Shown here piece by piece: positions 5,509 through 36,328 of a stretch of DNA of 64,000 nucleotides. The stretch lies in contig CAILVY010000238.1 in the NCBI GenBank assembly GCA_903837785.1, positions 40,116-104,115 on the forward strand, given 5' to 3'. The stretch is from Candidatus Hydrogenedentota bacterium. GTDB taxonomy: Bacteria > Hydrogenedentota > Hydrogenedentia > Hydrogenedentales > CAILVY01. Numbering within the stretch: position 1 is the first letter of the stretch; each line of letters begins with the position of its first letter. Under the pieces are notes generated by a model, which was not told the origin of the DNA, did not search any database, and was given only the letters and a program-made list of their open reading frames with translations. The position numbers and the translations under genes were made by a program.

Positions 5509-5626
5509 GCCTCACCGCGGGCGCTGGCCGGCGGGGTGGCACTGAATTTGGCTTCTGTCGTGAACGTTGCTATGCTGTGCGGCGCGTTCATTTGGCCGAA
5601 GCTTCAAACGGGATCGGGATATCTCC

Positions 5627-7252: not shown

Positions 7253-7386
7253 GCAAGGCGCCCTGCCCCTTGGCGCCGCCGGGTTGATTTCACGCCGAAG
7301 CGCATCCATACTTGTGTCGGCCAGTGATGCGGAAGTGGAGAGTCCATGCCGCTCATAAGGGGCGGCGCTTCGAGGGAGGACGGAGA

Positions 7387-8301
7387 ATGAGGCGCGGCGG
7401 ATTCACCCTGATTGAACTTCTGGTGGTCATCGCCATCATCGGGATACTGGCCGCCATCCTGCTGCCGGCGCTTTCCCGCGCGCGCGAGGCGGCGCGCCGC
7501 GCGAGTTGCCAAAACAACCTCAAGCAAATGGGTCTCGTCTTCAAGATGTATGCGAACGAGTCTCCCGGGCAGAAGTTCCCGCCGCTGCGGCGGCTGACCG
7601 GCTCGAATTGCCGGCCGCTCACACTCGCCCAGGCCGCCGTGCTCTGGACGCCGGACGGCCCCGCCATCTACCCCGAGTACGTCACGGATGTGAACATCTT
7701 CATGTGTCCCTCCGATGCCGACGGACGCATCGGGCCCGACAAGGAATTTCACTGCGGCGACGACCCGGCCCGGGAGTTCTGCCCCTGCAAATTCTACAAC
7801 ATCTCGTACAACTACTATGGCTGGGCCGTGAAACCGGAACATTATCTGCGCGCGCCGGTGGAAGTCACTCTCAACGATCCTCAATTTGACGTCTCTTCGC
7901 AGATGGACGCGGGCTTCAAGCAACAGCTCACAAACATGGTGATCGCCGTCCTCGCCACGCACGACATGAGCGCGTATGAAGACGATATGCCGTTCGATCA
8001 CGCCGATTTCGGGCCGAGTGCCATCTATCGCTTGCGCGAAGGCATCGAGCGGTTCTTCATCACGGACATCAACAATCCGGCCGCCACCGCCCGGGCCCAG
8101 AGTGACATCGCGATTCTGCACGACATGCTCGGCGCGACGCCGGTTGTGGACAGCTCCGTGGTGGCCAATCACATCCCCGGGGGAGGCAACGTGCTCTACC
8201 TGGATGGCCATGTTTCTTTTGTGCGCTATCCCGGCACGTGGCCCATCTGTGCCTCGTGGTCCATTATCATGTCCGACCCCATGGCGCTGCTCAGCTTCTG
8301 A
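7387..8301 (+). CDS. DUF1559-type protein with a prepilin-type N-terminal cleavage/methylation domain
   Basis: The N-terminus is [47 protein letters not shown] and the C-terminus is ...[24 protein letters not shown] ribosome-binding site lies upstream of the ATG at 7387. The stop overlaps the next gene's start (TGATG). Confidence 0.85.
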
Positions 8302-9500
8302 TGCGCGATTCATGGAAGCATAATCGTTGGCTTCAGGCGGCAGGCGCCGTGTGCCTGCTGGCGATCCTTGCTCTTCCGCTGTATATCGGACAGTCCTCGG
8401 AAACCGCGCCCATGCCGGCGGTCTCTCCGGAAGCGTGGGCGAGCCCGAATCTCCTCATCGACCGGAAGGACATCGATTCCATCAAGCAGGCCGTGGGGCG
8501 CAAGGATCCCGTGTTGACTGCCGCATGGCAGGACTTGTTCAAGACGGCGGACCCGATGTTGACGGACACGCCCGATCCGGTCGTGGGCGAGTTGAAGGTC
8601 CCCGGCTTTTATACGGCACAGCGCGAAACCCAGCAGCGCATCACGCGGCAGTTGCGGAAGGATGCGCGAACCGCCCATGCCCTCGCGCTGGCATTCGCCC
8701 TGTCCGGAAAGCCCGAATATGGGACGAAAGCGCGGGAATTCCTCTTTGCCTGGGTGCACTCCGTGACGAAGCCGGTGGATGCCGGTCCGTGGTGGCACAT
8801 CTACGATCTCGGGCATCGCGGCGACACGCCCCTCGTCGTTGCCTACAGCTTTCCGAGTTTCATCTACGCCTTTGATCTGTTGAAAGGCGAAGGCAGATTG
8901 AGTGAGGAAGACATTCAATCGTTTCGCGAATGGCTCCGCATCTTCGTGGCCTATCACCTCCGCGAAACCTGGTACAAGAACAACCACCACAACTGGCAGG
9001 TGCTCTTCCTCCTGTGTGCCGGGCATGCGCTCGAAGACCCGGCCCTTTTCGATCGCGCCGTGGCGTATTACCGGCACGGGCTTCGCACGCAGATTCGGGC
9101 GGATGGCGCGTTGCCCCGGGAACTGTGGCGCAAGGAGAAATCCGGAACGTATACGCTGATGGCTCTGGAGGCGATGGTTCAGGCCGTGCACATCGCGGAG
9201 CGTCACGGCTACGCCGGCATTCGCGACCTGCACTCCAGGAAAGGCGCCACGCTGGAAGATGCGTTGGACTTCTATATCCGGTATCTGGAGGATCCCGCGG
9301 CGTGGGCGAAGTTCACAAACGCCCGACAAGTAAACACGCCCGGGGAACCTTCGGATTGGGGATATATCTTTGAGCTTCCGTACCGCTGGTGGAAGAAAGA
9401 CCGCTATCTCGATTTCATGCTGAAGCGGCCCTACGGCTTTGGCGTGGAACGCTGCTACACGCTGGACTTCGCCACGCTCCTCTTTGCCCGGCCGCAATAG
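8301..9500 (+). CDS. Alginate-lyase-superfamily ((alpha/alpha) toroid polysaccharide lyase-like) protein
   Basis: There is a signal/TM segment ([28 protein letters not shown]). The NNHHNW motif matches the NNHxxW motif conserved in the alginate lyase / heparinase II/III superfamily, and Trp/Tyr-rich helical repeats follow. The gene is translationally coupled to the DUF1559 gene. Confidence 0.65.
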   Translation: MRDSWKHNRWLQAAGAVCLLAILALPLYIGQSSETAPMPAVSPEAWASPNLLIDRKDIDSIKQAVGRKDPVLTAAWQDLFKTADPMLTDTPDPVVGELKVPGFYTAQRETQQRITRQLRKDARTAHALALAFALSGKPEYGTKAREFLFAWVHSVTKPVDAGPWWHIYDLGHRGDTPLVVAYSFPSFIYAFDLLKGEGRLSEEDIQSFREWLRIFVAYHLRETWYKNNHHNWQVLFLLCAGHALEDPALFDRAVAYYRHGLRTQIRADGALPRELWRKEKSGTYTLMALEAMVQAVHIAERHGYAGIRDLHSRKGATLEDALDFYIRYLEDPAAWAKFTNARQVNTPGEPSDWGYIFELPYRWWKKDRYLDFMLKRPYGFGVERCYTLDFATLLFARPQ

Positions 9501-9515
9501 CCTGAAGGCATTCGC

Positions 9516-12500
9516 TCAGTTCCCGCCCAGCCGCATTGTCCATTCCGCAATGCGCTGCCGGTGCTGCCGGTACAGGCGTTCGTCCGTCGCGCTGTGCCAG
9601 ATGCGCCGGTCGCCCTGCTTCCGATAGTCGCGCGTTTCCACATACGCCAGGTCCGACAGTTCCATGATGTCGGTCTGCGCGATGCGCAATGCACGCTCCG
9701 CCTCGGCCATCGCCTCGGGATGCTTGCCCGTCTGCCGGCACCGGGCGATCGCTTCCTCGAGCAGGACCATCGCGCCCACGTCTTCGATGCCGTCGCGCAG
9801 CGCTTCCCAGCGTGCGCTCGGCACGGGCGGCACGCCCGGATAGACGAGGCCGTACTCGTCGTTGAAATCCTTGGCGCGCACCCAGGTGTCTTCCAGCGTG
9901 GTGCTGTGCGTCCACATGCCGATCCCGCTGAGCCCGAGGCGATGGGCGCGCCACGCGTTGGCGCGGTTGTAGCAGAGCGGCGACAGGCTCTTCACCTGGC
10001 TCACGCATTCATACGACCAGACCGGCTTTCCGCTCTGCAGGATGCGCTCGATGCGCGGATCCTTCGCGAGCAGCCCCGTCACGAGCCGCATGTTCGGGCA
10101 CCAGACATCAATCAGCGGCTCGATGCGCTGAAAGTCCTGCCAGCACAGTGACGGCACCGGGTCCGTGTAGATCCGAAGCTTGGGATCCGCCTCGCGGAAA
10201 AGCTCCGCGGCGTCCGTAAGCGCCGACAGGTTCTTGCCGAGATCGAGTCCGGGTTCGTCCACTGGGTAGAACGCGTAGTCCCCGTAATCCAGATTCTTCT
10301 CCGCGAGATGGTCGCGCAGGGCGCGGATATATGCAAGTTGCGCCGTGCGTTTCTCCGCATCGGAGGGCGGAGCCGCATGCGCGACTGCCGGGAGTCCCAC
10401 CTGCACCAGGATCTGTCCGCGGCCCCGGAGCAATTCGAGGTCCGCATCCAGCCTGCTCCAGTCGATGCTGAGATGCCCCTGGGCGTCCGCCTGGGCGGCC
10501 GGCACACTCGTGCGCGGATACACATTGACGCCGTGGCGGCCCATGTCATCGAGGGTCACGGCCGCACAGGATTCGGGAAACCACTTGTTGGGGACGTAAT
10601 CCCAAGTGCACAAGCGCAGCGGCGAAACTTCCGCAAGCGACAGGGGCAGCACCTCGATCTCGAAATCCAAATCGAGGCCGGCGACTTCGCGTTCCAGCGC
10701 CCGGACGTGAATCTTGCCGAGGTATTGTCCCGGTTTCGCGTCCTGCGCATCCACGCTGATCCACACTTTTGCGGCGTGTTGACCCGGAACGAGAAGCAGT
10801 TCCCCGCCGGCGAGCGCCGGCAGCGCATCGGCAACATATTCTCCGTTCAACGCCGGCACGGGCACCGCCTCACGCAGCGTGATTGCGCCGCCGAAGGGCA
10901 ATTTGTCCTCACGCGCCGGCCGGTCCATCGTGACGCGAAGGCGCCGCGCTTCCGGGAACGTGGAAGCCACCACGAAGGCGCCCTGATCCGCTTCGCCCTG
11001 ATACAGGCCTGTCACGCGCACCGACGGCTCGGCCGCGGCTTCCGGAATTATGACATCGGCGGCAAACGCGCCATGCGGGCACGCGGCCCAGGCGGTGATC
11101 TTATTCGGTGCGGGCACTTCCACGGCGGCGGCTTCGGGCGCCGGCCAGGATTCCTCGGCGAGCACGGTTCCGGACGCATCCTTAATCACCGCCCGCGCGG
11201 AGCGCGCATCGCTAGGCACGGGCAGTTCCCAGGCGGAGCGCGCCGTGAGGGCGCCCGTGATCACTCGTCTCGAACCGGGCCCTTCCGTGAACACATTGAC
11301 CGACAGCAAGCCGCCCTCCGGGTTGTTTATCAGGATGCGCGACACTTCGTTCACCCGCTCCGGAGCAAGCAGGGACACGGACACCTCTTTGGGCGTCCCC
11401 GCCGCGCCATAGGGCGAGACTGCCGGAGAAGGACTCAGCCGATATGCCAACAAGTACGAGGTGATGAGCACAATGCCCGGTTTCGGGCCGGCGATCACGA
11501 CTGGATTGGCGTTAAGCAGGCCGCTCAACAGCACATCGTCCGAAATCGTCCCGTCCTGCTTGAAAACATAGAGGTGGTGGGTGTAGCAGGGAACGAGAAT
11601 CTCGTCCTGGCCGTCGCCGTCCGCGTCGAAAAGCGCGGGACAGGCACGGGTCTTCCCGGGGAAGCGGTGCGTCCACAGCACGGTCCCCTCGAGGTTCAGC
11701 GCGTGAAGTGTGCCCCACAGACCGGTGCAGAGAATGACCCCTTGCTTTTCCGAATCCGCCGCGGGGCATATTGAAGCGATTTCCTCCCCCAGCGGGACCT
11801 TCCAGAGGATGCCGCCCCTCAGATCAAGCGCGGCCAGCGTGCCCTGTGCCGTGCCGCACAGTATCATCGCGTTCCCCGCCTTGTCCTTGTCTTCCACCGG
11901 CTCCGTGGACAATTCCTCCCCGAGATTCTGCGTCCACAACAGGTTTCCAAGGGGGTCCAAGGCGCAGAGCGAAGAACCCAGCGAGGCCAGGATGCAGGTG
12001 CCGCCGTCAGAAAGAACCAGTGAAAGCAAAGGCCCCTGACACGGACCCTTTTGTGGATTGACTTGCCAGACAGCTTTTCCGGACGCATCCAGACAGGTGA
12101 TCGCGCCGCTTTGATCGCCATAGCAGGCCAACACACCCGCCGCCGCACCCGTGCGGATCACCTTGGCCGGCAGGCCGCCGCCCCACGGCGTCTTCCCCGG
12201 CAATTGCGCTTCCCACGCCGGCTGGAACGCCCGGTCCAGCGCCGCAACCTTGCCTTCCACGCTGCAGAAGAGCCACTGCCGTGCCGCATCGTCGCCCAAC
12301 AAGCCCGGCGATGAGGTCCACTGGCCTTCGGGCAGGCGCGCCACGGCGCCATCCTGCCCCGAGCCCACCGGCGTGCCGTCTTCGCGCCAAACCATCACCT
12401 GCCCGAGACGGTTCACCGCAACAAGTTCGGGTTGGCCATCGCCGTCGCAATCGGCCCGCACGGGTGCGTTCTCGACCGGGTACTGGCCGGTCGGTTGAAC

Positions 12501-22411: not shown

Positions 22412-23086
22412 TCACTTCCCGAAAACTTCGACCTCGACGTAGTTGTTCATTGGGTTGGCGCTGTTGCCATTGGAGTAGCAGCGGACAAAACGGGCCTTGA
22501 CGCCGTCTACTTTCATCAAGCGGCCCCGGTTATTCTCGATATACTCCTTGTCCTTGCCCACGCCAAGGCCGGAGGAGTTGTCATAGTCGTTGTTATAGAT
22601 TGTGGTCACGCCCGTCTTGAAATCGGCATCGCTGGCAAGTTGCACCACGAGGTCGAAGTAGACGCGCTTCTCCTTGTGGGCATGCCATATCAAGACGGCC
22701 TGAATGGCGCGCTCCTCTTGCAGGTCAACCTGCACCCACTGCACGCCTGAATCCAGTTCAACGAGGCTGTTGTTCTCGAAGCGCTTGTCGCCGTCCGTGA
22801 CTTGTTTCCATCCGCCCAGCACCGGTTCCTTGGCGCTCGCGGCGACGGGCTTGCCTTTGGACAGGAGCGCGGTGCCCTGGGGCACCAGGAGCGGCGGACG
22901 TTCCTTGTACTCCTCGGGTTCAAGATTGGGACTCCAGTGTTCGCAGGGCGTGCCCTGGTTGGAGGCTTCGGGAAGTTCAATCTTCAGCGGCTCCAGCGTG
23001 TTGGCCTCCGCCGCATGAACGGATGCCGGAAGAGCCAGAAGAAGAGTCAGCGCAACCATCGCGGCGATCGACATTTTCGTGTTCAT
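22412..23086 (-). CDS. Secreted discoidin (F5/8 type C)-domain protein, paralog 1
   Basis: GAGGAGA sits 7-8 nt before the ATG at 23086. The signal peptide is MNTKMSIAAMVALTLLLALPASVHA. The F5/8-C-like core reads WVQVDL...IQAVLIWH. It is about 75% identical to the downstream paralog. Confidence 0.65.
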   Translation of the reverse strand: MNTKMSIAAMVALTLLLALPASVHAAEANTLEPLKIELPEASNQGTPCEHWSPNLEPEEYKERPPLLVPQGTALLSKGKPVAASAKEPVLGGWKQVTDGDKRFENNSLVELDSGVQWVQVDLQEERAIQAVLIWHAHKEKRVYFDLVVQLASDADFKTGVTTIYNNDYDNSSGLGVGKDKEYIENNRGRLMKVDGVKARFVRCYSNGNSANPMNNYVEVEVFGK

Positions 23087-23187
23087 TCGCGGTCTCCTCG
23101 TGTTTGTGCCTGCGGCGATCTTCTGCACATCTCCCAAGCCAACAGACGCGGCGCGGAGCCGCTTTATTCAACAGGGCCGGCCGTTTC

Positions 23188-23226
23188 ATTCCTGCCGACA
23201 AAAACAGCGCGCCCCCGGACCGGAGC
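23188..23226 (-). terminator. Rho-independent terminator downstream of discoidin paralog 2
   Basis: The stem GCGCCCCCGG / CCGGGGGCGC (10-bp perfect stem, 8-nt loop) is followed on the minus strand by GCTGTTTTTGTC. Confidence 0.5.
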
Positions 23227-23257
23227 CCGGGGGCGCAACGATGAATCAGTGAAAGGC

Positions 23258-23938
23258 TTATTTGCCGAAGACTTCGACTTCGACGTAGTTGCTCATTTCG
23301 TTGGCGGTGTTGCCGTTCGTGTAGCAGCGGACGTAGCGGGCTTTCACGCCGTCAACCTTGACCAGGCGGCCTTTGTTGTTCTCGATGTATTCCTTGTCCT
23401 TGCCCACGCCGAGGCCGGCCGAATTGTCCGCGTCATTGTTGTAAACCGTGGTGACGCCGGTCTTGAATTCGGGATCGTTGGCCAGCTGGACCACGACATC
23501 GAAATACACGCGTTTGCCCTCGTGGAAGTGCCACAGCAGGATGGCGTAGATGGCGTTTTCCTGGCCGAGGTCAACCTGGACCCACTGCACGCCCGAACCC
23601 AGTTCGACCAGGCTCGACTTCGCGTAATCCTTGTCGCCGTCGGTGATTTGCTTGAGTTCGCCCACGGAGGGGTTCTTCGCGCTGCTGGTGACCGCTTTGC
23701 CCTTGGACAGGAGCGCGGTGCCCTTCGGAACCATCATCGGCGGACGGTCTTTGTAGTCTTCGGGCTCCAGGTTCGGACTCCAGTAGTCCAACGGCGTGCC
23801 GCCGAAGAACGGCTCCGGCAATTCAATCTTCAGCGCTTCCGTATCGCCCGCAGGGGCATCCGCCGCCAGGGCGGGCTTCGCGGCGAAGAACGCCAACGCC
23901 AGGGTGAGCATCACAAACATCCACAACTTCGCTCTCAT
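23258..23938 (-). CDS. Secreted discoidin (F5/8 type C)-domain protein, paralog 2
   Basis: AGAGGAGA sits 7 nt before the ATG. The signal peptide is MRAKLWMFVMLTLALAFFAAKPALA. The protein is collinear with paralog 1 over its full length. Confidence 0.65.
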   Translation of the reverse strand: MRAKLWMFVMLTLALAFFAAKPALAADAPAGDTEALKIELPEPFFGGTPLDYWSPNLEPEDYKDRPPMMVPKGTALLSKGKAVTSSAKNPSVGELKQITDGDKDYAKSSLVELGSGVQWVQVDLGQENAIYAILLWHFHEGKRVYFDVVVQLANDPEFKTGVTTVYNNDADNSAGLGVGKDKEYIENNKGRLVKVDGVKARYVRCYTNGNTANEMSNYVEVEVFGK

Positions 23939-24241: not shown

Positions 24242-25003
24242 TCAGCGCTTCTTGATGGCCAGTCCGCTCTTGGCAGGCGCTTTCGGGGCGGGTCGGCCGG
24301 GGTTGTAGTCCCGCGGCCGTCTCGGCCCCTCGGAATCGGGCGGGTTCGTCAGGTACGTGGCGGGGTCATCGAAAGCGATGCCCACCGGCTGTATCGGAAG
24401 ATACCGCCCCGCGAACCCCGGATACTTGACGAAGGCCACCGAGCAGTCCAGGAAGAGCACGTTTGACCCGCCCGGAATGTGGTTGAAGGTGTTGACGTTC
24501 GCCGCATAGCCCGTAAGGTCCCACATCAGCGGCTGCGGCGGCGTCCCCCGCTCGGGCGGCGGCAACACGATGGGAGTGGTGGTGTAAGCACCGAGGTAGT
24601 CATAGCTGCAGCGCAGGCTGGCCTGCGACTCGACACTCGTATTGAGCGGAAGGGGCAGCCGTTCCCTGTCGTCACTGAAGAAGTTGCCCGGGTTTGTATT
24701 GGCATCGGAGGGACAGATGTACGTTCGGATGTCGCTCAGGTAATTCCGGTGGAGGCCAAGCAGGCAGTCGGCATTGTTCTTGCCGCCGCTCCAGGGCAAT
24801 TGCCCCGTGTTCTCCTCCGCATACATCACCAGCGCCATGCCCAACTGATTCAGGTTGGAGGCACAGCTGCCGCGACGTGCCGCTTCCCGCGCCCGCGCGA
24901 GCGCGGGGAGCAAGATGGCCGCGAGGATGCCGATGATCGCAATGACCACCAGCAACTCAATCAGGATGAAGGCGTTCCTGCGGAATTTCCCGGAGTGGTT
25001 CAT
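24242..25003 (-). CDS. DUF1559-type protein with a prepilin-like N-terminus (second copy in window)
   Basis: The N-terminus is [53 protein letters not shown] and the C-terminus is ...[18 protein letters not shown]. It is the last gene of the T2SS-like operon. Confidence 0.8.
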
Positions 25004-25050
25004 GACGGGGACTCCTGGATGAACGTTGCGCCGAATGGGAGGAGCGTGTC

Positions 25051-25503
25051 TCATGATGCCCGCCGCTCCACGTGCCACCGGTACTGGGTGACGGTCCCAT
25101 CCGGCCCGAAGCTTAGGTCCGCCTGAAGCACGCACCGCGCCCAGAGGTGGTTCTCCGTCCCCCGCTCGCCGGTGGCGCGCAGCACATAGTCCCCGGGACC
25201 CGCGCCGCGCGTTACCTCGACGGCAAAGCGGCCGCCGTCCAGCCAGGTGTCTTTTTCACCCGTGTATGGACGCTTCGCACGCAACTCCGCGATCGCCTTG
25301 TCCAGGCCCGCTTCCGCGAGGCATTGCGCCACCGCGTCGTTTTCGGTCCGCTGGCCCTGTTTCAGCGTGACGTGCAGGTAGCTCCACACCGCGCCCGCGC
25401 CGATGCCCATCACGGCAACCAGCATAATCGCCATGATGAGTGCCGCGCCGCGCCGGCGGACTTCCGACCGTGCAGTGGAAATCTGCGGTGTGCTGTGCTT
25501 CAT
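25051..25503 (-). CDS. Pseudopilin-like small membrane-anchored protein (non-canonical: no Glu+5)
   Basis: [39 protein letters not shown]... has a basic leader followed by one hydrophobic helix. GGAGA is 7 nt upstream. Its ATG overlaps the upstream stop (ATGA). Confidence 0.45.
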
Positions 25504-26039
25504 GGTTGTTCTCCAATCCCGCGCGGCGCGGCGACAAAACGGCGGGCGGTCTGGCACTCCTGCCGGCCCTGAGCCATCACATCAAGCTGCACAAACCCGG
25601 GGCCACTCATGTCGAAACGAATCGAGTCCACCGGAACGCGGTACGTCACGAAGCGGCTGGAATCGAGTTTCCCGTCCTTTTCCACAAGGTCCATTCGGCT
25701 GAGGTGTTGCGGATCCCGCAACGCGCCAAACACGATGTAGTGCGGGCACCCGTCCTGCGGTTCCGCGCGAAGCACCAACTGCGCTTCGCCGCTCCGGTAC
25801 GTGCCCAGTTCCGGCACGACCGCGCTCGCGCTCCGCACAGCCTGGGTGAAATCTCTCTGGAGGTTCGTCACATCCATCATGCGATCCATGGCCTGTGTGC
25901 CGAGCGTTGAAAGCCGCAGTCCGCTGACGAAGAGCTTGCCGCAGAGGCTGACGAGGACGAACATAACGGCCACGTACATCAACATCTCCAGCAGACTGTA
26001 TCCCGCGCGAGGCGGCCTTGTTCCGGCCATGGTGCTCAC
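25500..26039 (-). CDS. Prepilin-type (minor pseudopilin-like) protein
   Basis: The N-terminus RAGYSLLEMLMYVAVMFVLVSL fits the prepilin peptidase motif G|(F/Y)(S/T)L(L/I)E. ATGA overlaps are present with both neighbours. Confidence 0.55.
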   Translation of the reverse strand: MSTMAGTRPPRAGYSLLEMLMYVAVMFVLVSLCGKLFVSGLRLSTLGTQAMDRMMDVTNLQRDFTQAVRSASAVVPELGTYRSGEAQLVLRAEPQDGCPHYIVFGALRDPQHLSRMDLVEKDGKLDSSRFVTYRVPVDSIRFDMSGPGFVQLDVMAQGRQECQTARRFVAAPRGIGEQP

Positions 26040-26464
26040 CTCTTCTTCGCAATCAGCGTGTTCAACTGCTTCTCAACGACCCGCCCGTGCTCGCCCACCC
26101 ACCGCAACGCCACCCGCACCGACTTCAAGTCCGGGACGCCCGGATACTCCATGATTTCGACCGTCCCGGAGGCGCGCACCAGGCGGTCCATTTCCGGCGT
26201 TTGGCTCCGGAAGGGGCTCTTCCCCGCGGCCAGCGACTCAAACGGGCTTCCGCGGAGCGTCTCGATCTCATTGATGAGCACACGGCCGGCAATGCTGTAT
26301 TCATTGGCGACTTTCGCGCCGGTCAACGCGAGCGTATACATCTGCAGCGCCCCGAAAACCCCAACCGTGATGATGAAGATGGCGCAGGTCAGTTCCACGA
26401 GCGCCGCACCGCGCGTGCTGCGCCGATTCCGGCGCTGTAACGGGTTACCGCATTCCATGATCAC
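26036..26464 (-). CDS. Pseudopilin-like protein (GspH/I-like; non-canonical N-terminus)
   Basis: The N-terminus is RRNRRSTRGAALVELTCAIFIITVGVFGAL (basic leader plus hydrophobic helix). A GTG/ATG start overlaps the gspF-2 stop (GTGA). Confidence 0.5.
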   Translation of the reverse strand: MIMECGNPLQRRNRRSTRGAALVELTCAIFIITVGVFGALQMYTLALTGAKVANEYSIAGRVLINEIETLRGSPFESLAAGKSPFRSQTPEMDRLVRASGTVEIMEYPGVPDLKSVRVALRWVGEHGRVVEKQLNTLIAKKR

Positions 26465-28023
26465 AGGCTTCCCATGATTACGTTGTAGATCGAGGTCAGC
26501 GTCAAGAAAACGGCCAATTCCACGCTGAGCGTGATGCCGCCCAGCAAAAGCACCCCGAGCGGCATGAGCGCATCCGAGATAATGCGGACCCGCTTCTCCG
26601 CCTGCCGCCCGTAGAACTCCGCCAGCCGGCCGAAGGCGTCCGGCAGCATTCCCGAACGTTCGCCCAGCAACACGAGGCCGCAGAACGAGGCCGGGGCCAG
26701 GGCCCGACGCCCTTTCTCGGCGTTCCAGGCGTCCCCCAGGCTCTCGCCCTGCAGGATCCGTTGGCGCACGCGGCGCACCGACCGCTCGTACAGGGGGTTC
26801 AGTTCCGAGTTCGCGGCGCTCTCGAGCGCCCGCTCCAGCGGCACGCCGGCCCGCAGCAGTTTCTCGAGGATCAAGGACACGACGGCTAGATTCCGGTGAA
26901 CCACCACGCTGCGCAGGCCGGGGATGAGCAAGAGCACGGCGGCCATCGAACGTGTCGAGAAGGTCCTGCGGCGCAGCCGCGTGATGAGAAACGCCGCAAT
27001 CATGAACAGCACAACCACGGCAAGCAATTGCACCACGAAGAGAATCCAGGCGGCGGTGCGCTCGTCCCCGTTCAGGGTGGAGGACAAGCGTCGCCTGTCG
27101 CCGAAGATCGCATACACGAGGCCCGTCATCACCCTCGCCGGGCCCGGCAATTGCCCCCCGAAGTCCTGTACGATATCGATAAAGACGGGCAGCACCCTTA
27201 TGGAGAGAAACGTCAGAATCGTCATCTGTGCCGCAAAGACGAATCCGAGGTAGAGCAGGTTGGAGACCACCCCCTTGCCTATCGTCAGCGCGTGCAGCGT
27301 ATCGTCGCCCAGCTGGTCCAGGCAGTCGCCCATCCGCCCCGACTCTTCGCCCGCCTTCACCAGGTCGACGGAGAAGCGCGGGAAGAAACGCCGTTGGCGC
27401 GCCATGGCCTCGGAGAGTGGAAGTCCCGCCGAAAGATCATCGCGCAGCGTGAGAAAGACCGCTTCGAGCCGCCCGCTGCGGCGCAGGAAGAACACGCCCG
27501 GCACCGCCGCGACCGCGCCGACGGCGCAGAAATACACCAGCGTGGGCAGGTCGACGTCGCCAAACAAGTCGAACTGGGTGATGCCGACGTAAACGCCCAC
27601 CAGGATGATGGAGAGCATGACGCCATACGCTTCCGCGAGGGCGAAGATGTTGCGCGCGCTCAGTCCGCCGCGCTGCCGTCGCTCCTCGCGGCCGCAGGCT
27701 TCCAGGCCCGGTACCAGCGGCGCGTTGGTCTTCACAATGGCGCCTATCTGATCCACGACGGTGAGCAGGTCCCGGCGCCAGTGTCCGACCGCAAGATAGA
27801 TGGGGCCCTTCCAGCGGGCACTTCGCGAACGATAGTAACGGCCCGGCGTGTAGTTGGAAGCGTCGAAGCGCGCGACTTTCTTGCGCCGGAGCGGGCGGTG
27901 CCAGGAACCCGGCGAGAAGATTCGCGTGAACCAGAGATCGCCCCACTCGCGCACGGGTGCTTCGCTGCGCTTGCGGCCCAGAAGCCGTCCCAGGTCTGAG
28001 AAAAGCAGATCGCGTAGTTTCAT
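26461..28023 (-). CDS. GspF/PilC-family inner-membrane platform protein, paralog 2, with an approximately 110-aa basic N-terminal extension
   Basis: The 520-aa protein starts MKLRDLLFSDLGRLLGRK... and ends ...LMPLGVLLLGGITLSVELAVFLTLTSIYNVIMGSL, which is the GspF signature. The track ORF 26461..28797 is a spurious extension into gspF-1. The true ATG at 28023 overlaps the gspF-1 stop (ATGA). Confidence 0.75.
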   Translation of the reverse strand: MKLRDLLFSDLGRLLGRKRSEAPVREWGDLWFTRIFSPGSWHRPLRRKKVARFDASNYTPGRYYRSRSARWKGPIYLAVGHWRRDLLTVVDQIGAIVKTNAPLVPGLEACGREERRQRGGLSARNIFALAEAYGVMLSIILVGVYVGITQFDLFGDVDLPTLVYFCAVGAVAAVPGVFFLRRSGRLEAVFLTLRDDLSAGLPLSEAMARQRRFFPRFSVDLVKAGEESGRMGDCLDQLGDDTLHALTIGKGVVSNLLYLGFVFAAQMTILTFLSIRVLPVFIDIVQDFGGQLPGPARVMTGLVYAIFGDRRRLSSTLNGDERTAAWILFVVQLLAVVVLFMIAAFLITRLRRRTFSTRSMAAVLLLIPGLRSVVVHRNLAVVSLILEKLLRAGVPLERALESAANSELNPLYERSVRRVRQRILQGESLGDAWNAEKGRRALAPASFCGLVLLGERSGMLPDAFGRLAEFYGRQAEKRVRIISDALMPLGVLLLGGITLSVELAVFLTLTSIYNVIMGSL

Positions 28024-29240
28024 GAGCCGGAGATCACATCGCCCAACGTGAAGATGGGCAGGTAGAGGGAAACCAGCAGACTGACAATGATGCCGCCCAG
28101 CAGCAGCACCATGATGGGCGCGGCCATCGTTCCGACCAGTTTGTCCCGCGTCGCGATTTCCCGATCGTAGGTGTTTGCCAGGTTTTCGAGGGCGTCCTCG
28201 GCGCGGCCGCGCTCCTCGCCCGTGGAGAGGAGCCAGCAGAAGTTGTGGCCGAAGAACCCCGTGCCCGAGAGCGAGTCCGCGATGCGTTCGCCGCCCGCCA
28301 CCTGAAGGCTCGCCTCCTCGACCGCCTGCTGCAGCAGCGGGCTGTCCGAACTGGCCGCGGCCAGCTCCAGGCTCTCGATGATCGGCACGCGGGAAGCCAG
28401 GAGCATGCCGAGGGTCCGGCTGAAGCGCGCCATGGCCATCAGATAGTGCATATGCCCCAGCACCGGCATGTGCATGCGCAGCCAGTCCAGCCAGGCGCTG
28501 CCGCTCTGGGTCCGCGCCAGGTAGGCCCGGAGCAGCCGTGCGGCAATGTAGCCCGCGGCAATCCCCACGACCACCGCCTGCCAGCGATGAACCATGAAAT
28601 CCCCCATGTCCACCCAGAACTGCGTCGGCCAGGGCAGTTGTCCGCCGAAGTCGTGGAAGATGTCCGCGAAGACGGGCACGACCTTGACCAGCAGGAAGCC
28701 CATGACGCAGGAGCCGATGAGCAGCACCATCACCGGATAGGCCATCGCCAATTGAAGGGTGTGTTTCACGCCAATCATGCGGGTCGTGTAATTGCACAGG
28801 AGCTGCAGCACGCCCGCGAGGTTGCTCGTCTTCTCGCCGGCCCGGATCACGCTCGGGAACAGCTTGGGGAAGCTCGCATGCTGCCGGGTGATGGCGTCTT
28901 CCAGCGAGACACCCTGTTCCAGATCCTTGTGCAATTGATCGAGCACCGGTTTCAGGCGGGAGCTGCGCAGATCCGCGGCCAGGGCTTTCACCGCCGGCGC
29001 CAGCGGCAATTCACTCCGCGCCACGGAAACCAGCTGGTCCGTGAGCACATTCAGTTCGTCCCAGGAAAGCCGTTTCGAAACGCGGAGCAGGCCGCGTTCC
29101 CGATGCAGTTCCTCGACCGTGTTTACGGTCAACCCACGTTCCTGAAGGACCTTCGTCACGCGGTGGGCCGAAGACTCCTCGATGGTGCCTTCCACGGGCT
29201 TCCCCTCGACGTCCAACGCCCGGTACTTGTAGAGTGCCAT
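28020..29240 (-). CDS. gspF: GspF/PilC-family type II secretion / type IV pilus platform protein, paralog 1
   Basis: The 406-aa protein starts MALYKYRALDVEGKPVEGTIEESS... and has two GspF repeats. It ends ...MVLLLGGIIVSLLVSLYLPIFTLGDVISGS. Confidence 0.85.
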   Translation of the reverse strand: MALYKYRALDVEGKPVEGTIEESSAHRVTKVLQERGLTVNTVEELHRERGLLRVSKRLSWDELNVLTDQLVSVARSELPLAPAVKALAADLRSSRLKPVLDQLHKDLEQGVSLEDAITRQHASFPKLFPSVIRAGEKTSNLAGVLQLLCNYTTRMIGVKHTLQLAMAYPVMVLLIGSCVMGFLLVKVVPVFADIFHDFGGQLPWPTQFWVDMGDFMVHRWQAVVVGIAAGYIAARLLRAYLARTQSGSAWLDWLRMHMPVLGHMHYLMAMARFSRTLGMLLASRVPIIESLELAAASSDSPLLQQAVEEASLQVAGGERIADSLSGTGFFGHNFCWLLSTGEERGRAEDALENLANTYDREIATRDKLVGTMAAPIMVLLLGGIIVSLLVSLYLPIFTLGDVISGS

Positions 29241-31381: not shown

Positions 31382-31873
31382 ATGGCGGAAACAGACACGC
31401 AGACATCGGTTGCCGGAAAACACCTCACTTTCCATCTGGGCGAGGAACTCTATGGCATCGAGATCCTCAAGGTGCAGGAAATCATCGGCATGATGAACGT
31501 CACGCGCGTACCGCGCACGCCGGATTTTGTGCGGGGTGTCATCAATTTGCGCGGCAAAGTCATTCCTGTGGTTGATCTGCGGCTCAAGTTCGGCATGGAA
31601 ACGGTTCTCGACACCGAACGCACCTGCATCATCGTGGTCCAAGTCGCGGGCGCCGAGTCCCGAGTGACCATGGGAGTCATTGTGGATGAGGTCTCCGAAG
31701 TGCTGGAGATTCAGTCCGGCCAAATCGAGCCCGCGCCTTCTTTTGGCGCGACCATCGACACGACGTTCATCCGGGCCATGGGCAAGGTTGGCCAGAAGGT
31801 TGTCATTTTGCTCGACGTCGATCGGGTGTTGTCCACCAGGGAACTGTCGGCCATTGAACAGGCCTCCGTGTAG
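31382..31873 (+). CDS. cheW: Chemotaxis coupling protein CheW
   Basis: The 163-aa protein is ...HLTFHLGEELYGIEILKVQEIIGMMNVTRVP...GVINLRGKVIPVVDLR... Confidence 0.9.
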   Translation: MAETDTQTSVAGKHLTFHLGEELYGIEILKVQEIIGMMNVTRVPRTPDFVRGVINLRGKVIPVVDLRLKFGMETVLDTERTCIIVVQVAGAESRVTMGVIVDEVSEVLEIQSGQIEPAPSFGATIDTTFIRAMGKVGQKVVILLDVDRVLSTRELSAIEQASV

Positions 31874-32106
31874 AGGCGAACGTTAGCACGACATGATTAG
31901 GCGGAAGGGTGTGCGGCAAGTGTGCCCTTCCTCAAAGGTGAGTGAGCATTAGGAGAGCAGGAGGGGCGTCCTCGCTCTGGTTCATCTCTTCGTGACTTCC
32001 ACGGCGAGATGAAGGCACCCATATCCCTCGGTCGAGGCGTCCCCAGTGAATCGGCATCAACGGGCGCATCCAGTGCGTCCGGCGGCGCCGCGTAGGAGGG
32101 CATGCC

Positions 32107-34179
32107 ATGTTGAAACGTTTTGGTCTGGCCGGGAAGATTGGCGCTGGATTCTGCGTGTTGATCCTGATCTCCGTGATCGGAGGCGCATTCTGTGTGTACA
32201 ACATGCTTCAGGTGCGAAGAGATGCGTGGGAGACGGCCAATGAAAACGTTCCCGAGGTGACGCTCGTGAACGAAATCGAGCGCCACGCGCTCTTGACGAT
32301 GTATGCCATGCGCGGCTACGGCTTTTCTGAAGACAAAACCTTTTACGAAGAGGGCCAGCAAGAACTCGGCCACACGAGGGAACTCCTTAAGTCGGCGCAG
32401 GAGCTGGGTTCCCGTTCGGAGAACCTGGCGGGGCTCAGGAAGGCCGCAGACGAAGCTCAAGACAGTGTGACGGGCTATGCGGCCATTGCCGACGAGATGG
32501 CGAAGGAAGTCACCCAAATCCAGGACTGCCGGACCCGCCTCAATGAAGCGGCCAAGCTTCTCATCCAGAGCTGCGCGGAATATGAGCAGAATGAAGCGCA
32601 GAAACTGCGATCCGAGATCCTGCGGATGGGAGAGGCCGGCGAACGGGCCTCCTCAGGCGCGAACACCCTTCCGTCCGCCGCCGGCACAGCGCCACCCCAA
32701 GGCGCACCGGTTACGCCGGAAAAAGTGTTGCAGCGGTTCGACAAGATCGAGACGGCCTCGGCGATCGTCAATTTGGCGAATCAGGCCCGTCTGGAGGTGT
32801 GGACCGCCCAAGCCATTCATCAGCCCAACGGCCTGGAACAAGCTATAGAAGCCTTGGAAGGCATTAACACGCAGTTCGAAGGGCTCCGGGCGAAGAGCAC
32901 CCAGCAAATCAACCTGGATCAAATCGACAACGCGCGCAAGGCGGCGGCCGACTACAAGGCGCTCATCCAGGAGCTTCTGAAGAGTTGGCGCGCGCTCGAA
33001 CAGGTGAACGAGAGCTTTGACCAGAAGGGCCATGCCGTGCTGGCGGCGGCCGAGAAGAAGGCCACGGAAAGCATGACCGATGCCAGGAACATGGCCAACG
33101 CCACCGTGAAATCGCTGAATACCGCCTCAGCCGCCACAGGCGCCGGATTGGCCGCCGCGCTGATCCTGGGACTGTTGCTCTCCATCCTCATCACGCGCAG
33201 CGTCACCCGGCCAATCAACAAGGTGATCCGCAAGCTCACCGAAGGCTCGGAGCAGGTCTTCGATGCGGCCAGCCAGGTCGCCCAAACGAGTCAATCCACC
33301 GCCGAGGGCGCCAGCAAGCAGGCGTCCAGCCTCGAAGAAACCTCGGCCTCCCTCGAAGAAATGGCGTCCATGACCCGGCAGAACGCGGAAAACGCCGGCA
33401 TGGCCAATACGACCGCGGACCAGGCCAGAGAAGCCGCGGACCGCGGAATCACCTCCATGCAGCGGATGAATGACGCCATCCGGAAGATCAAGGAATCCTC
33501 GGATCAGACGGCCAAGATACTGAAGACCATCGACGAAATCGCCTTCCAAACCAATCTCCTGGCGCTGAACGCCGCGGTGGAAGCGGCGCGTGCCGGCGAG
33601 GCCGGCAAGGGCTTTGCCGTCGTGGCGGAAGAAGTGCGCAGCCTCGCCCGCCGCAGCGCTGAAGCCGCGAAAGACACCGCCTCCCTGATCGAAGGCGCGC
33701 AACGGAACTCGGAACAGGGCGTGGCGGCTTCGCTGGAGGTCACCGAAATCCTGGAACACATCGCGGACAAAGCGCGGAAAGTGACCCAACTTGTCAGCGA
33801 AGTGTCCGCGGCCACCAAAGAACAGGCCCAAGGCATCGCTCATGTCAACACGGCGGTCTCCCAAATGGACAAGGTCATACAATCCAATGCGGCCGGTTCC
33901 GAGGAAGCGGCCTCGGCAGGAGAGGAACTCTCCGCCCAGGCCGAAGAACTGAATAAGATGGTCGCGGAATTGGTGGTCGCCGTGAGCGGCGAAAAGAGAG
34001 CACGCAACGACTACGAATCGGACGGAACGGTCAGGAAGCGCACCGCACTCCCGGTGCCGGAGCGAAAGGCAGGCAGGGCCGCATTGCCGGCGTCAGATCT
34101 CTTCGTGCCCGCCAGCCAAAAGCCCCCCCTCCCCCAAGCTGTCATCCCCCTTGACGACATGGGGCTTGAGGATTCCTAG
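32107..34179 (+). CDS. Methyl-accepting chemotaxis protein (4HB sensor, HAMP, MA domain)
   Basis: An N-terminal TM segment and a C-terminal TM/HAMP region are present. The signalling-domain core reads [50 protein letters not shown]. The C-terminal tail reads [12 protein letters not shown]. Confidence 0.9.
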
Positions 34180-34546
34180 CAGCGCACGCCGCCCGTCCTC
34201 TTACGGGGACTCCCGGCAGGCCGACGATCGCGTGGGAGTTTATCGCAGTATCCATAGTACACTTCCGCTGTAGGGACACGGCAATTCCCTTGAACTTGCG
34301 TGATTTGCGGTATATGCACAATTGTGGCATGATCCACCACGTTCGGTCCGAGGTGTGCAGACCCGGCAGAACGCACAGGGTTACGTACGATACATTGCGC
34401 GTACAATGCGGCGCAAGGCCGTCGGCTCCCGAAGGATATGCGGATTGTGAGTGCGCGCGTGCCACCGCGGACAACGCGGTCCGTTCTAGCTCGGTCAGCG
34501 GCGATAACGGAGTGATGCACAACAGCATCACGTGAGGAATGTCACC

Positions 34547-36328
34547 ATGGGCATCAATGTCAAAATGGTCCTGATGACCGGCGTCAGCATCCTGCTGCTG
34601 ATCAGCGTCAGCATCCTGGGCGTGTTTGAACTGCGCGTCCTGCGCAGCGACTTGGACCAGGTGGTGCGCCGCGAATTCGTGCCGCTGATCGATCAGCAGA
34701 TGATCCCGCTGCTCAAGGAAGATGTGCTGGCTCTGGTCAACGGCGATTTCCCGAAGGTGGCCGAGCTCAACACCGGCTGGATCCTGATGCTGGAAGCGGA
34801 CCGCGACGTCTATCAGGCACTCGTCGCGGAGAAGGAGGCGCTCGAATCCGCCTCGCCGGAGATGCTGGCCAAGGCCGACAAGGACAACACGGACAACATC
34901 GGCCAGGCCGAAGAGCGCATGAAAAAGGCCTCGGCCACTTTCATTGCCGAAGAAGCCAAGGCCATGTATCAACAGTTCGTGCAGCGTTTCGAAACCTGGA
35001 AGCAGCAGTCGCGCGGGGTGATTCAGGCCGCCGCCACGCCGGGCAGCGGCGTCCACTCGACGGACACGGGGGGCGAAACGAGCAGCTTCCAGATAATGCG
35101 CGGCCTGATCGACACGCTGCAGGCGGAACAGGAGAAGGCCATCACGAAGATCCAGGAGGGGGTCCGGGCCAGAAACGGGCGGGTCAACGAACGCGCCCAA
35201 GCCATCGAGCAGAAGAAGGGGGAGGTGCTCGTGCTCGCCACGGCCAGCGAAACGGCCTCCGCGCGCGGACAGGCGCTCTTCCTGTTCGGGGGCATCCTGT
35301 TCAGTGCGTTCGGTATCGCCTTCGGCACGTGGATCGCCCGCTCGATCACCCGGCCCCTGCACCGCATCATCGCGGGACTGGCTTCCGGGGCCGATCAGGT
35401 GACGGGCGCCGCGGGCCAGGTCGCCCAGTCGAGCCAGGCCATGGCCGACGGCGCCAGCCATCAGGCATCGAGCCTGGAGGAGACCTCTGCCTCCCTGGAG
35501 GAGATGGCTTCCATGACCCGGCAGAACGCCGAAAACGCGCAGACAGCAAACGTTATGGCCAACGAGGCGCGCGACGCCGCGGACAAGGGTCTGGCCGCCA
35601 TGCAGCGCATGAATGAAGCCATCGCCCGAATCAAGTCCTCCTCGGATCAGACGGCCAAGATCCTCAAGACCATCGACGAAATTGCGTTTCAGACAAACCT
35701 CCTCGCGTTGAACGCCGCGGTCGAGGCGGCCCGGGCCGGAGAGGCCGGAAAAGGCTTCGCCGTCGTTGCGGAGGAAGTCCGCAATCTCGCCCAACGCAGC
35801 GCCGAAGCGGCCCGAAACACCGCCGCGCTGATTGAAGGCGCGCAGAAGAACTCGGATCAGGGCGTCGCCGCCTCGGCCGAAGTGGGCGGAATTCTGGAAC
35901 AGATTGCGGCCAAGGCCCAGAAAGTGACCCAACTTGTGGGCGAGGTTTCGTCCGCGACGAACGAGCAGGCCCAAGGCATTGGGCAAGTCAACACAGCCGT
36001 CTCCCAAATGGATCAGGTGACCCAGGCCAACGCCGCCAGTTCCGAGGAAGCCGCGTCCGCCGGAGAGCAACTCTCCGCCCAGGCCGCCGCCCTCAATGCG
36101 ATGGTCGCCGAACTGGTTGGCATTGTCGCGGGCGCGCATGCCCGCCGTCAGGACACGGCGCATCACGGCGCGGCCCCGAAGACCCCGAAGTCCCGACCCT
36201 CGGCTCTGCCGGAACGGCGCACACGGAAGATCCCTTTGCCCGCCTCGCCCGGCCAGACCGCCCACAAGAAGCTGCGGGCGCCCGAAGATGTCATCCCGCT
36301 CGATGACAAGGACCTCGAGGACTTCTAG
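34547..36328 (+). CDS. Methyl-accepting chemotaxis protein, paralog 2
   Basis: The ATG at 34547 follows a GTGAGGAA ribosome-binding site (the track start at 34532 is GTG). The signalling core is identical to the first MCP ([50 protein letters not shown]). The tail reads [12 protein letters not shown]. Confidence 0.9.

Follow-up and report, generated by a model that had tools for sequence, protein, structure and literature searches.

Six minus-strand genes between positions 24242 and 29240 of a 64,000-nucleotide stretch of a Candidatus Hydrogenedentota genome (contig CAILVY010000238.1, positions 40,116 to 104,115; hereafter, the window) probably encode the inner-membrane platform and the filament module of an uncharacterised type IV filament machine of Hydrogenedentota, akin to type II secretion system (T2SS) pseudopili and those of competence (Com) systems. 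The operon appears to read F1-F2-I-J-K-G: two genes for paralogs of the GspF platform protein are followed by three genes for small pilin-like proteins, named p1, p2 and p3, and by a gene for a prepilin of the DUF1559 family. The features are listed below; in signal peptides, a slash separates positions -1 and +1.

28020-29240, minus strand: gspF-1 (F1 orthogroup), 406 residues; Pfam T2SSF match at 9.5e-47, in two stretches.
26461-28023, minus strand: gspF-2 (F2 orthogroup, long form), 520 residues; Pfam T2SSF match at 5.3e-30, in two stretches.
27769-28023, minus strand: basic N-terminal extension of GspF-2 (about residues 1-85), delineated by composition, alignment and an AlphaFold2 (AF2) model.
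27460-27684, minus strand: residues 114-188 of GspF-2, an insertion of about 75 residues within its first cytoplasmic domain, delineated by an alignment gap, BLAST segments, hydropathy and the AF2 model.
26036-26464, minus strand: p1, small prepilin-like protein of 142 residues, putatively GspI/PilV-like; class III signal peptide RG/AALVE.
25500-26039, minus strand: p2, minor pseudopilin of 179 residues with a predicted GspJ fold; signal peptide AG/YSLLE.
25051-25503, minus strand: p3, minor pilin of 150 residues, putatively GspK/PilX-like; signal peptide RG/AALIM.
24242-25054 or 24242-25003, minus strand: cassette-specific DUF1559 (SBP_bac_10) prepilin; 49.8 bits for PF07596 and 27 bits for N_methyl.

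All five gene-to-gene junctions are 4-nt overlaps (in order, ATGA, GTGA, GTGA, ATGA and ATGA), the ATG start of gspF-2 overlapping the stop of gspF-1. For p1 and p2, translation could instead start at an ATG two to three codons 3' of the overlapping GTG; in both cases, the genes lie a few bases apart at most. The DUF1559 gene has an alternative internal ATG start at 25003, with AGGAG 8 nt upstream. The six-gene layout and the overlaps from gspF-1 to the third pilin-like gene, as described in an initial annotation made from the letters, are thus confirmed, and the p3/DUF1559 junction, left uncounted there, is ATGA as well. Domain matches and junctions also support the view that this is a translationally coupled operon of the T2SS/type IV pilus kind, ending in a DUF1559 prepilin gene. 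A promoter and terminator scan gave no signal above shuffled expectation.

Both platform proteins pass the 25.2-bit cutoff of the Pfam T2SSF model (PF00482), with 158.5 bits for GspF-1 and 104.4 bits for GspF-2. Neither reaches the 424-bit cutoff of the NCBIfam GspF equivalog TIGR02120 (269.6 bits for F1, 117.6 bits for F2). GspF-1 has the canonical length, with a T2SSF_N domain and two T2SSF domains, and matches PilC in the PDB (3jc8, 6.8e-49). T2SSF_N (PF28597) is carried by the F1 orthologues and is missing from F2. A Tyr-Pro pair in the first transmembrane segment (TMS1) is kept in F1 and reads Tyr-Leu in F2. The two proteins of the window are 29% identical (BLAST). In a neighbour-joining tree of the platform proteins of all cassette types, three orthogroups are seen, F1, F2 and Fx, the last being confined to Hydrogenedentota cassettes with three F genes; the three F genes of a Planctomycetaceae metagenome-assembled genome (MAG; locus L012) branch outside these groups. 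The stability of the orthogroups suggests a hetero-oligomeric platform. Moreover, because GspF-1 and GspF-2 are non-identical, conserved, always adjacent and translationally coupled, the simplest reading is that they are subunits of one hetero-oligomer. In current models, GspF forms a homotrimer below a hexameric ATPase (PMC10790770; bioRxiv 10.64898/2026.05.07.723501). The stoichiometry of the platform would perhaps be 1:1:1 where three F paralogs are found and 2:1 where there are two. Tandem full-length platform paralogs had been pointed out as atypical, in agreement with the literature, where pairs are reported only for Tad and archaeal systems, as half-length products of gene fission (Denise et al., 2019; PMC6668835).

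The pilin-like proteins had been described as non-canonical pseudopilins. They instead appear to be an ordinary I-J-K-type set completed by a G-like subunit, p1 and p3 being placed on their N-terminal sequences. In p1, the motif RG/AALVE, at 26410, has Gly at -1, followed by A+1, A+2, L+3, V+4 and E+5. Glu+5 was reported missing from both p1 and p3; for p1 this was a miscount, and Gly-1 and Glu+5 (G19 and E24) are invariant in 13 orthologues, most of which display G/F[ST]LIE. By its position, size and N-terminus, p1 appears GspI/PilV-like. It matches the NCBIfam PilV model at 1.1e-3 and is aligned by hhalign to the neighbouring N_methyl protein of a related locus, L017, with a probability of 92%. 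p2 scores 14.7 against Pfam N_methyl, below the threshold of 21.2, and is, on structure prediction, a GspJ-fold minor pseudopilin. Its family is modest but real, with 202 clusters (50% identity) at E <= 0.001 among 1.84 billion representatives.

For p3, the absence of Glu+5 stands, Gly-1 being present. A missing Glu5 is the hallmark of GspK/PilX-type minor (tip) pilins. The N-terminal 70 residues of p3 match the NCBIfam GspK model (2.4e-7), hhalign pairs the protein with the T2SSK-domain protein of L017 over 64 columns with a probability of 93%, and the orthologue from the Planctomycetaceae MAG carries Pfam PilX_N. A helix AE-x-G-x-x-K-A-x-A-x-L is conserved. These data point to a GspK/PilX-like protein; compared with GspK, it has a far smaller globular part. 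Searched against the PDB, the sequence profiles of p1 to p3 gave matches confined to the pilin N-terminal helix; a concatenated p1/p2/p3 profile (A6) run against a word-indexed protein set returned no homologues. In p1, p2 and the DUF1559 protein, Glu+5 is present, as expected of class III prepilins.

The last gene product belongs to the DUF1559 family, with scores above gathering for both PF07596 (23.3 bits) and N_methyl (21.2 bits), and falls just short of the H-X9-DG model TIGR04294 (15.3 for a cutoff of 19). It has Ala in place of Gly at -1 (signal peptide NA/), as does one orthologue, and a C-terminal NVLFLDxSV motif. Its N-terminus matches that of NCBIfam GspG (1.5e-8), and its profile finds geopilin (8.6e-13), PilA and GspG (5wda, 5.5e-8) in the PDB. 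On this major-pilin/GspG-like N-terminal helix, the DUF1559 protein is a putative major subunit. Orthologues are 48-61% identical in Hydrogenedentota cassettes and 33% identical in the Planctomycetaceae MAG. The DUF1559 family is strongly expanded, with 68 paralogues counted in Planctopirus limnophila (PMC10632474) and 91 in Tuwongella, where expression was observed and the proteins were recovered in the detergent-soluble fractions (Triton X-100 and SDS; PMC8567305). No assembly machine for these proteins is named in the DUF1559/PF07596 literature that was retrieved.

A second DUF1559 prepilin gene, with a canonical G/FTLIELLVV at 7399, is found in the window at 7312-8301 (plus strand), between genes for a Na+/solute symporter (5567-7252) and for an alginate-lyase-family protein (8238-9500), both on the plus strand. 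The arrangement hints at a tie between scattered DUF1559 pilins and loci for taking up or degrading polysaccharides. Together with the Pfam name SBP_bac_10 and with the lack of a secretin, such a location would also agree with the idea that no filament is made in practice, DUF1559 proteins being membrane-anchored periplasmic binding proteins that the cassette inserts, processes or organises, for instance for polysaccharide capture. We regard this idea as quite unlikely, because a modelled J-fold protein flanked by pilins that are I-like and K-like in their N-terminal sequences, next to a platform, is a filament-initiation signature, and because the N-terminus of the DUF1559 protein matches polymerising major pilins.

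Genes for the motor and for prepilin processing were searched by two routes. Window open reading frames (ORFs) of at least 250 residues, the coding frame being chosen by GC content at third codon positions, were each scanned against Pfam; none of those that look coding has a T2SSE, Secretin, Peptidase_A24 or GspC/L/M-type domain. Second, tblastn searches of the 64 kb gave no match for two GspE proteins of related cassettes, nor for PilB and PilD from Shewanella and Pseudaeromonas, and a PilC query in the same search recovered both gspF genes. The flanks of the operon covered by this local survey measure about 24 kb and about 35 kb. The statement that no ATPase, secretin or peptidase gene is nearby therefore holds within 64 kb. 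A directly adjacent gspE, gspD or pilD gene would have made the operon an ordinary split locus; none is found here, nor at ten further loci of this type, of which eight have DNA beyond the cassette. The gene tables of related loci contain no Secretin domain. In one relative (L094), a Peptidase_A24 gene lies upstream of the cassette, about 6 kb from its first GspF gene.

The ATPase is present in fuller relatives of the operon. F1-F2-E-p1-p2-p3-DUF1559 cassettes occur in more distant Hydrogenedentota loci (L008, L009/L010, L019, L020, L102 and L106), and F-F-F-E-p1-p2-p3-DUF1559 cassettes in L093-L096 and L097-L099. The Planctomycetaceae MAG has three F genes, p1-p3 and DUF1559, with an E fragment upstream, beyond a gene for an extracytoplasmic function (ECF) sigma factor. 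The cassette GspE, of about 425 residues, is highly conserved (thousands of matches), with Vibrio EpsE as its nearest counterpart (5e-96). Its alignment covers residues 112-497 of EpsE, so that it lacks the GspL-binding N1 domain, which fits with the absence of GspL/M from all cassettes. The operon of the window, which could have appeared as a one-off, is therefore an ATPase-less derivative of a widespread cassette of seven to ten genes that, as a rule, has two or three GspF paralogs.

Some other features of these relatives deserve mention. An ECF sigma gene directly precedes the cassette in four loci (L009 3144-4273, L093 404-1544, L102 6253-7392 and L012 513-1548), with a zf-HC2 anti-sigma gene beside it in three of the four; the 149-residue gene found there in L012 has no Pfam match. 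The pair is absent upstream of the six-gene form. Some homologues of the cassette ATPase (P0090 and P0095) are called as proteins of 580-600 residues with N_methyl (PF07963) and T2SSE domains; these could be true E-pilin fusions or merged gene calls. In P. limnophila, Plim_0082-0086 are annotated in a row as T2SS protein E, three hypothetical proteins and DUF1559, all non-essential in transposon sequencing (PMC10632474). Judged by annotation order only, this looks like the E-I-J-K-G half of a cassette split the other way.

The six-gene cassette itself was found at 11 distinct loci (the window, L001, L003, L005, L007, L015-L018, L104 and L105). Loci were gathered by contig look-ups and two collection scans, and flanks were examined up to 10 kb. 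One contig scan used a single peptide pattern, and most of its 80 loci are pilBCD loci of Shewanella or Aeromonadaceae (L022-L092), devoid of minor pseudopilin genes. In the 11 loci, F2 is 36-69% identical to that of the window, the flanking genes are unrelated and the ORFs are intact. The 4-nt overlaps F1/F2, p2/p3 and p3/DUF1559 are kept across loci, the last one in L001, L003, L005, L007 and L009. MAGs that carry the six-gene cassette include those holding CAYYRW010000019.1 (assembly GCA_964474205.1), JAKQOG010000202.1, JAKQEQ010000086.1, CAIZGN010000471.1 (L017) and CAZBNU010000015.1. Full-length GspF-2 homologues are few, and the named ones come from Candidatus Hydrogenedentes/Hydrogenedentota. 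The placement of the host in the Planctomycetes-Verrucomicrobia-Chlamydiae group, which had been assumed, has to be abandoned in favour of Hydrogenedentota, though a distant relative of the cassette is found in the Planctomycetaceae MAG. The contigs of three related cassettes (L014, L015 and L018) are titled 'uncultured Nitrospirales bacterium'; these cassettes share 48-66% identity with cassettes of named Hydrogenedentota, and the titles probably reflect a problem of taxonomic labelling. At L017, the cassette is directly followed by a second cluster (8638-12199) coding for an N_methyl protein, a T2SSJ protein, a T2SSK(+HHH) protein and a 453-residue T2SSF protein, with no ATPase before the contig end. 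Such genomes thus scatter their type IV filament genes.

The ratio of nonsynonymous to synonymous substitution rates (dN/dS) of the six genes is 0.12-0.33 for the window compared with L001 and 0.09-0.25 for L003 compared with L005, values that are approximate since dS is near 1. Ratios of 0.09-0.33 in all six genes indicate that the cassette is maintained by purifying selection. These results bear on the possibility that the six genes are a decaying remnant, non-functional since the loss of the ATPase gene. In favour of decay, the ATPase-containing form is the more widespread and no replacement ATPase lies nearby. However, the ORFs are intact over the whole range of F2 divergence, the coupling is retained, the ratios resemble those of the neighbouring SpoU and O-methyltransferase genes (0.13 and 0.16), and the additions to F2 are themselves conserved. 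The remnant reading is already disfavoured, and we consider it extremely unlikely.

These additions distinguish GspF-2. Its first 85 residues contain 21 K/R for 7 D/E, which bears out the Arg/Lys-rich N-terminal extension noticed initially, and hold two conserved motifs, Y-x-P-G-x-Y-Y-R and W-x-G-P-x-Y. The AF2 model of GspF-2 has a mean pLDDT (predicted local distance difference test) of 81.6; the first 55 residues or so, of low confidence, are probably disordered. The tail has a dN/dS of 0.08 (window versus L001) or 0.20 (L003 versus L005). The second addition, the insertion of about 75 residues, had escaped notice. Hydropathy shows two segments in it (126-144 and 157-175), and AF2 predicts helices at 123-149 and 159-198 with a pLDDT of 81-87. 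It is thus predicted to form an extra membrane hairpin, giving GspF-2 five membrane helices instead of three; its dN/dS is 0.21-0.27. The insertion is missing from the F2 proteins of ATPase-containing cassettes (alignment gap in those of L008/L009), and their basic N-terminal tail is shorter. F2 measures about 476-540 residues in every cassette without E and about 386-395 residues in every cassette with E, an association that has no exceptions (long F2 in 11 loci, short F2 in 8). In the F1 tree as in the F2 tree, the ATPase-less loci group into a single clade, so that this association may rest on a single evolutionary event and is not usable as a statistical correlation.

The perfect coincidence of hairpin and tail gain with the loss of the ATPase gene could also be taken to mean that the machine is independent of an ATPase, the modified GspF-2 driving pilin extraction and assembly together with GspF-1 by ion flow through the platform. 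A role as an ion-conducting channel has been put forward for PulF (PMC10790770). Nevertheless, the co-occurrence may be one event in one clade and the channel Glu is gone from both paralogs. Moreover, we know of no type IV filament system that works without an assembly ATPase. We hold this explanation to be very unlikely.

According to another explanation, the operon is part of an ordinary T2SS that is split over the genome, with gspD, gspE, gspC/L/M and gspO elsewhere and the second GspF as a trivial duplicate. Type IVa pilus and Com systems commonly are multi-locus (PMC6668835), the P. limnophila row, without adjacent F genes, suggests by its annotation that the cassette can be split in other ways, and the second pseudopilin/J/K/F cluster of L017 lies beside a cassette. 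Against such a split, secretin or GspC/L/M-like genes are found in no cassette of the family nor in flanks of up to 10 kb, the cassette ATPase has no GspL-binding domain, and the NCBIfam scores for GspF, GspG, GspJ and GspK are all far under the equivalog cutoffs. In addition, the low identity of F1 and F2, their separate conserved orthogroups and their distinct motifs show that F2 is no recent duplicate. An ordinary split T2SS therefore seems unlikely.

Assignment of the operon to the platform and filament module of a type IV filament machine leads to the following scheme. GspF-1 and GspF-2, made by co-translation, would assemble into a hetero-oligomeric platform or rotor. Like GspI-J-K and PilI-J-K, the I-like p1, the J-fold p2 and the K-like p3, without Glu5, would form a tip initiation complex; I-J-K complexes initiate type IV filaments, and PilI-J-K has been called a 'licensing complex' (PMC12918778). 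The tip complex would prime the polymerisation of the G-like DUF1559 pilin into a short filament. In the absence of a secretin from all cassettes, this filament would probably be periplasmic, that is, an endopilus. More speculatively, other DUF1559 paralogues of the genome, such as that at 7312-8301, might be polymerised by the same machine. A PilD-type peptidase and a GspE/PilB-type ATPase would be needed, encoded elsewhere and acting in trans. As to evolution, the ancestral cassette would have had two or three GspF paralogs, an N1-less GspE, I-J-K and DUF1559, the ECF sigma/anti-sigma pair lying ahead in some relatives. In the six-gene lineage, the ATPase gene would have left the cassette and GspF-2 would have gained its basic tail and its membrane hairpin. 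It is tempting to speculate that these additions tether, or adapt the platform to, a shared ATPase encoded in trans.

It should, however, be noted that several points weigh against this assignment. ATPase, prepilin peptidase and secretin genes are found neither in the window nor in the flanks of up to 10 kb (shorter at contig ends) of the other ATPase-less loci; with no motor or peptidase gene found locally, supply in trans is an assumption. The cassette-type ATPase lies inside a cassette at all eight distinct loci where it was seen, with no orphan: this is true of the four contexts reached from an ATPase (P0159, P0115, P0048 and the query locus of L020), and likewise of the four reached from F2. 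Homologues of GspC/L/M, in the window ORFs or in the related loci, and of PilM/N/O were not seen. In the Glu-Pro pair of TMS3, Glu is replaced by Ala in F1 and is also gone from F2; this Glu is conserved in GspF/PilC homologues and is placed at the channel constriction (PMC10790770). Finally, the proposed hetero-oligomeric platform and the proposed I-J-K-G order of assembly are drawn from homology and gene order.

A more far-reaching proposal can be made for the whole cassette family. It would be a distinct, undescribed class of type IV filaments assembling DUF1559 pilins on a hetero-oligomeric platform (an F1/F2/Fx heterotrimer or a 2:1 assembly), in which the hairpin and tail of GspF-2 compensate for the departure of the ATPase gene, either by GspL-like recruitment of a shared ATPase or by altered energising. 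Taken as a whole, this proposal is tentative and rather doubtful. The cassette is of interest in several respects. DUF1559/SBP_bac_10 prepilins count among the largest paralogous families still lacking an explanation in Planctomycetota and their relatives, a genome containing from tens to about a hundred of them; the cassette is a candidate assembly machine for them and may make it possible to test what the family does. How GspF/PilC work, and as which oligomer, is still debated, dimers, trimers and tetramers having all been modelled. Symmetry would be broken by two or three platform paralogs that are co-translated and differ from each other, which would offer a handle for structural work and for the roles of individual protomers. 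Exit of the ATPase gene and gain of the GspF-2 hairpin and tail are, likewise, an evolutionary experiment on the coupling of platform and motor.

The neighbourhood of the operon in the window is as follows. Upstream, on the same strand, Pfam confirms the SpoU methylase gene mentioned in the initial annotation and identifies an O-methyltransferase gene. Just upstream of these methyltransferase genes, on the opposite strand, 31382-36328 (plus strand) contains a CheW gene and then two genes for methyl-accepting chemotaxis proteins; no connection between these genes and the operon was found. The operon is directly followed, on its own strand, by 22412-23938 (minus strand), which encodes two paralogous proteins of about 230 residues with F5/8 type C (discoidin/NedA-like) domains. 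This pair is not kept beside the cassette elsewhere; two cohesin-domain genes occupy the place in L003 and L005.

Within the type IV filament superfamily, a platform with T2SSF domains and class III prepilins are found in the window; the GspE/PilB ATPase and Peptidase_A24 are not found in its 64 kb. One close comparison is with T2SS (Gsp/Eps/Xcp/Pul), which have a GspF platform, a GspG major pseudopilin and GspH-I-J-K minor pseudopilins. The cassette family differs from T2SS by having two or three divergent platform paralogs rather than one, by lacking a secretin, GspC/L/M and GspH, and by its ATPase, which is N1-less or, here, missing from the locus. Moreover, it has a DUF1559 protein of about 250 residues as its putative major subunit, a p3 of half GspK's size and no Glu in TMS3, and all NCBIfam equivalog scores are under cutoff.

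The Com pseudopilus (comGA-GG) is similar in that a minimal single operon provides the ATPase, the platform, one major and several minor pilins, with neither secretin nor alignment complex and with a short ATPase. In contrast to the Com operons of monoderms, the cassette has two or three platform genes, begins with the platform and ends with the major pilin. A YhdP-family gene in the window indicates that the host appears to be a diderm, unlike the monoderms with Com systems. Com equivalog scores are below cutoff (ComGB, 98.2 for 240 bits; ComGC, 25.3 for 75 bits; ComGE, also under). With Tad systems, the cassette shares two adjacent homologous platform genes whose products are thought to act together, a trimer of heterodimers having been proposed for TadB-TadC (PMC10790770). 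TadB and TadC, however, each have one T2SSF domain, as a result of fission (PMC6668835), whereas each paralog of the operon has 406-520 residues and two T2SSF domains. The stoichiometric logic of full-length paralogs thus differs from that of TadB/TadC.

In P. limnophila, the essential Plim_0401-0410 operon was considered as a counterpart and rejected. Its genes carry the annotations E, PilT-like, E, then a single T2SS protein and six hypothetical proteins; it is a type IV filament-like operon from a related environmental lineage, with lineage-specific hypothetical genes at its end, but it has no tandem F genes and no DUF1559. Compared with the DUF1559/H-X9-DG prepilins of Planctomycetota, the cassette copy forms a distinct, short, conserved orthogroup that is physically coupled to I-J-K and platform genes. 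The cassette family is not named in the papers that were searched. The six-gene form is a derived, ATPase-less member, with a remodelled GspF-2, of a family that links DUF1559 pilins to a dedicated, probably heteromeric platform.

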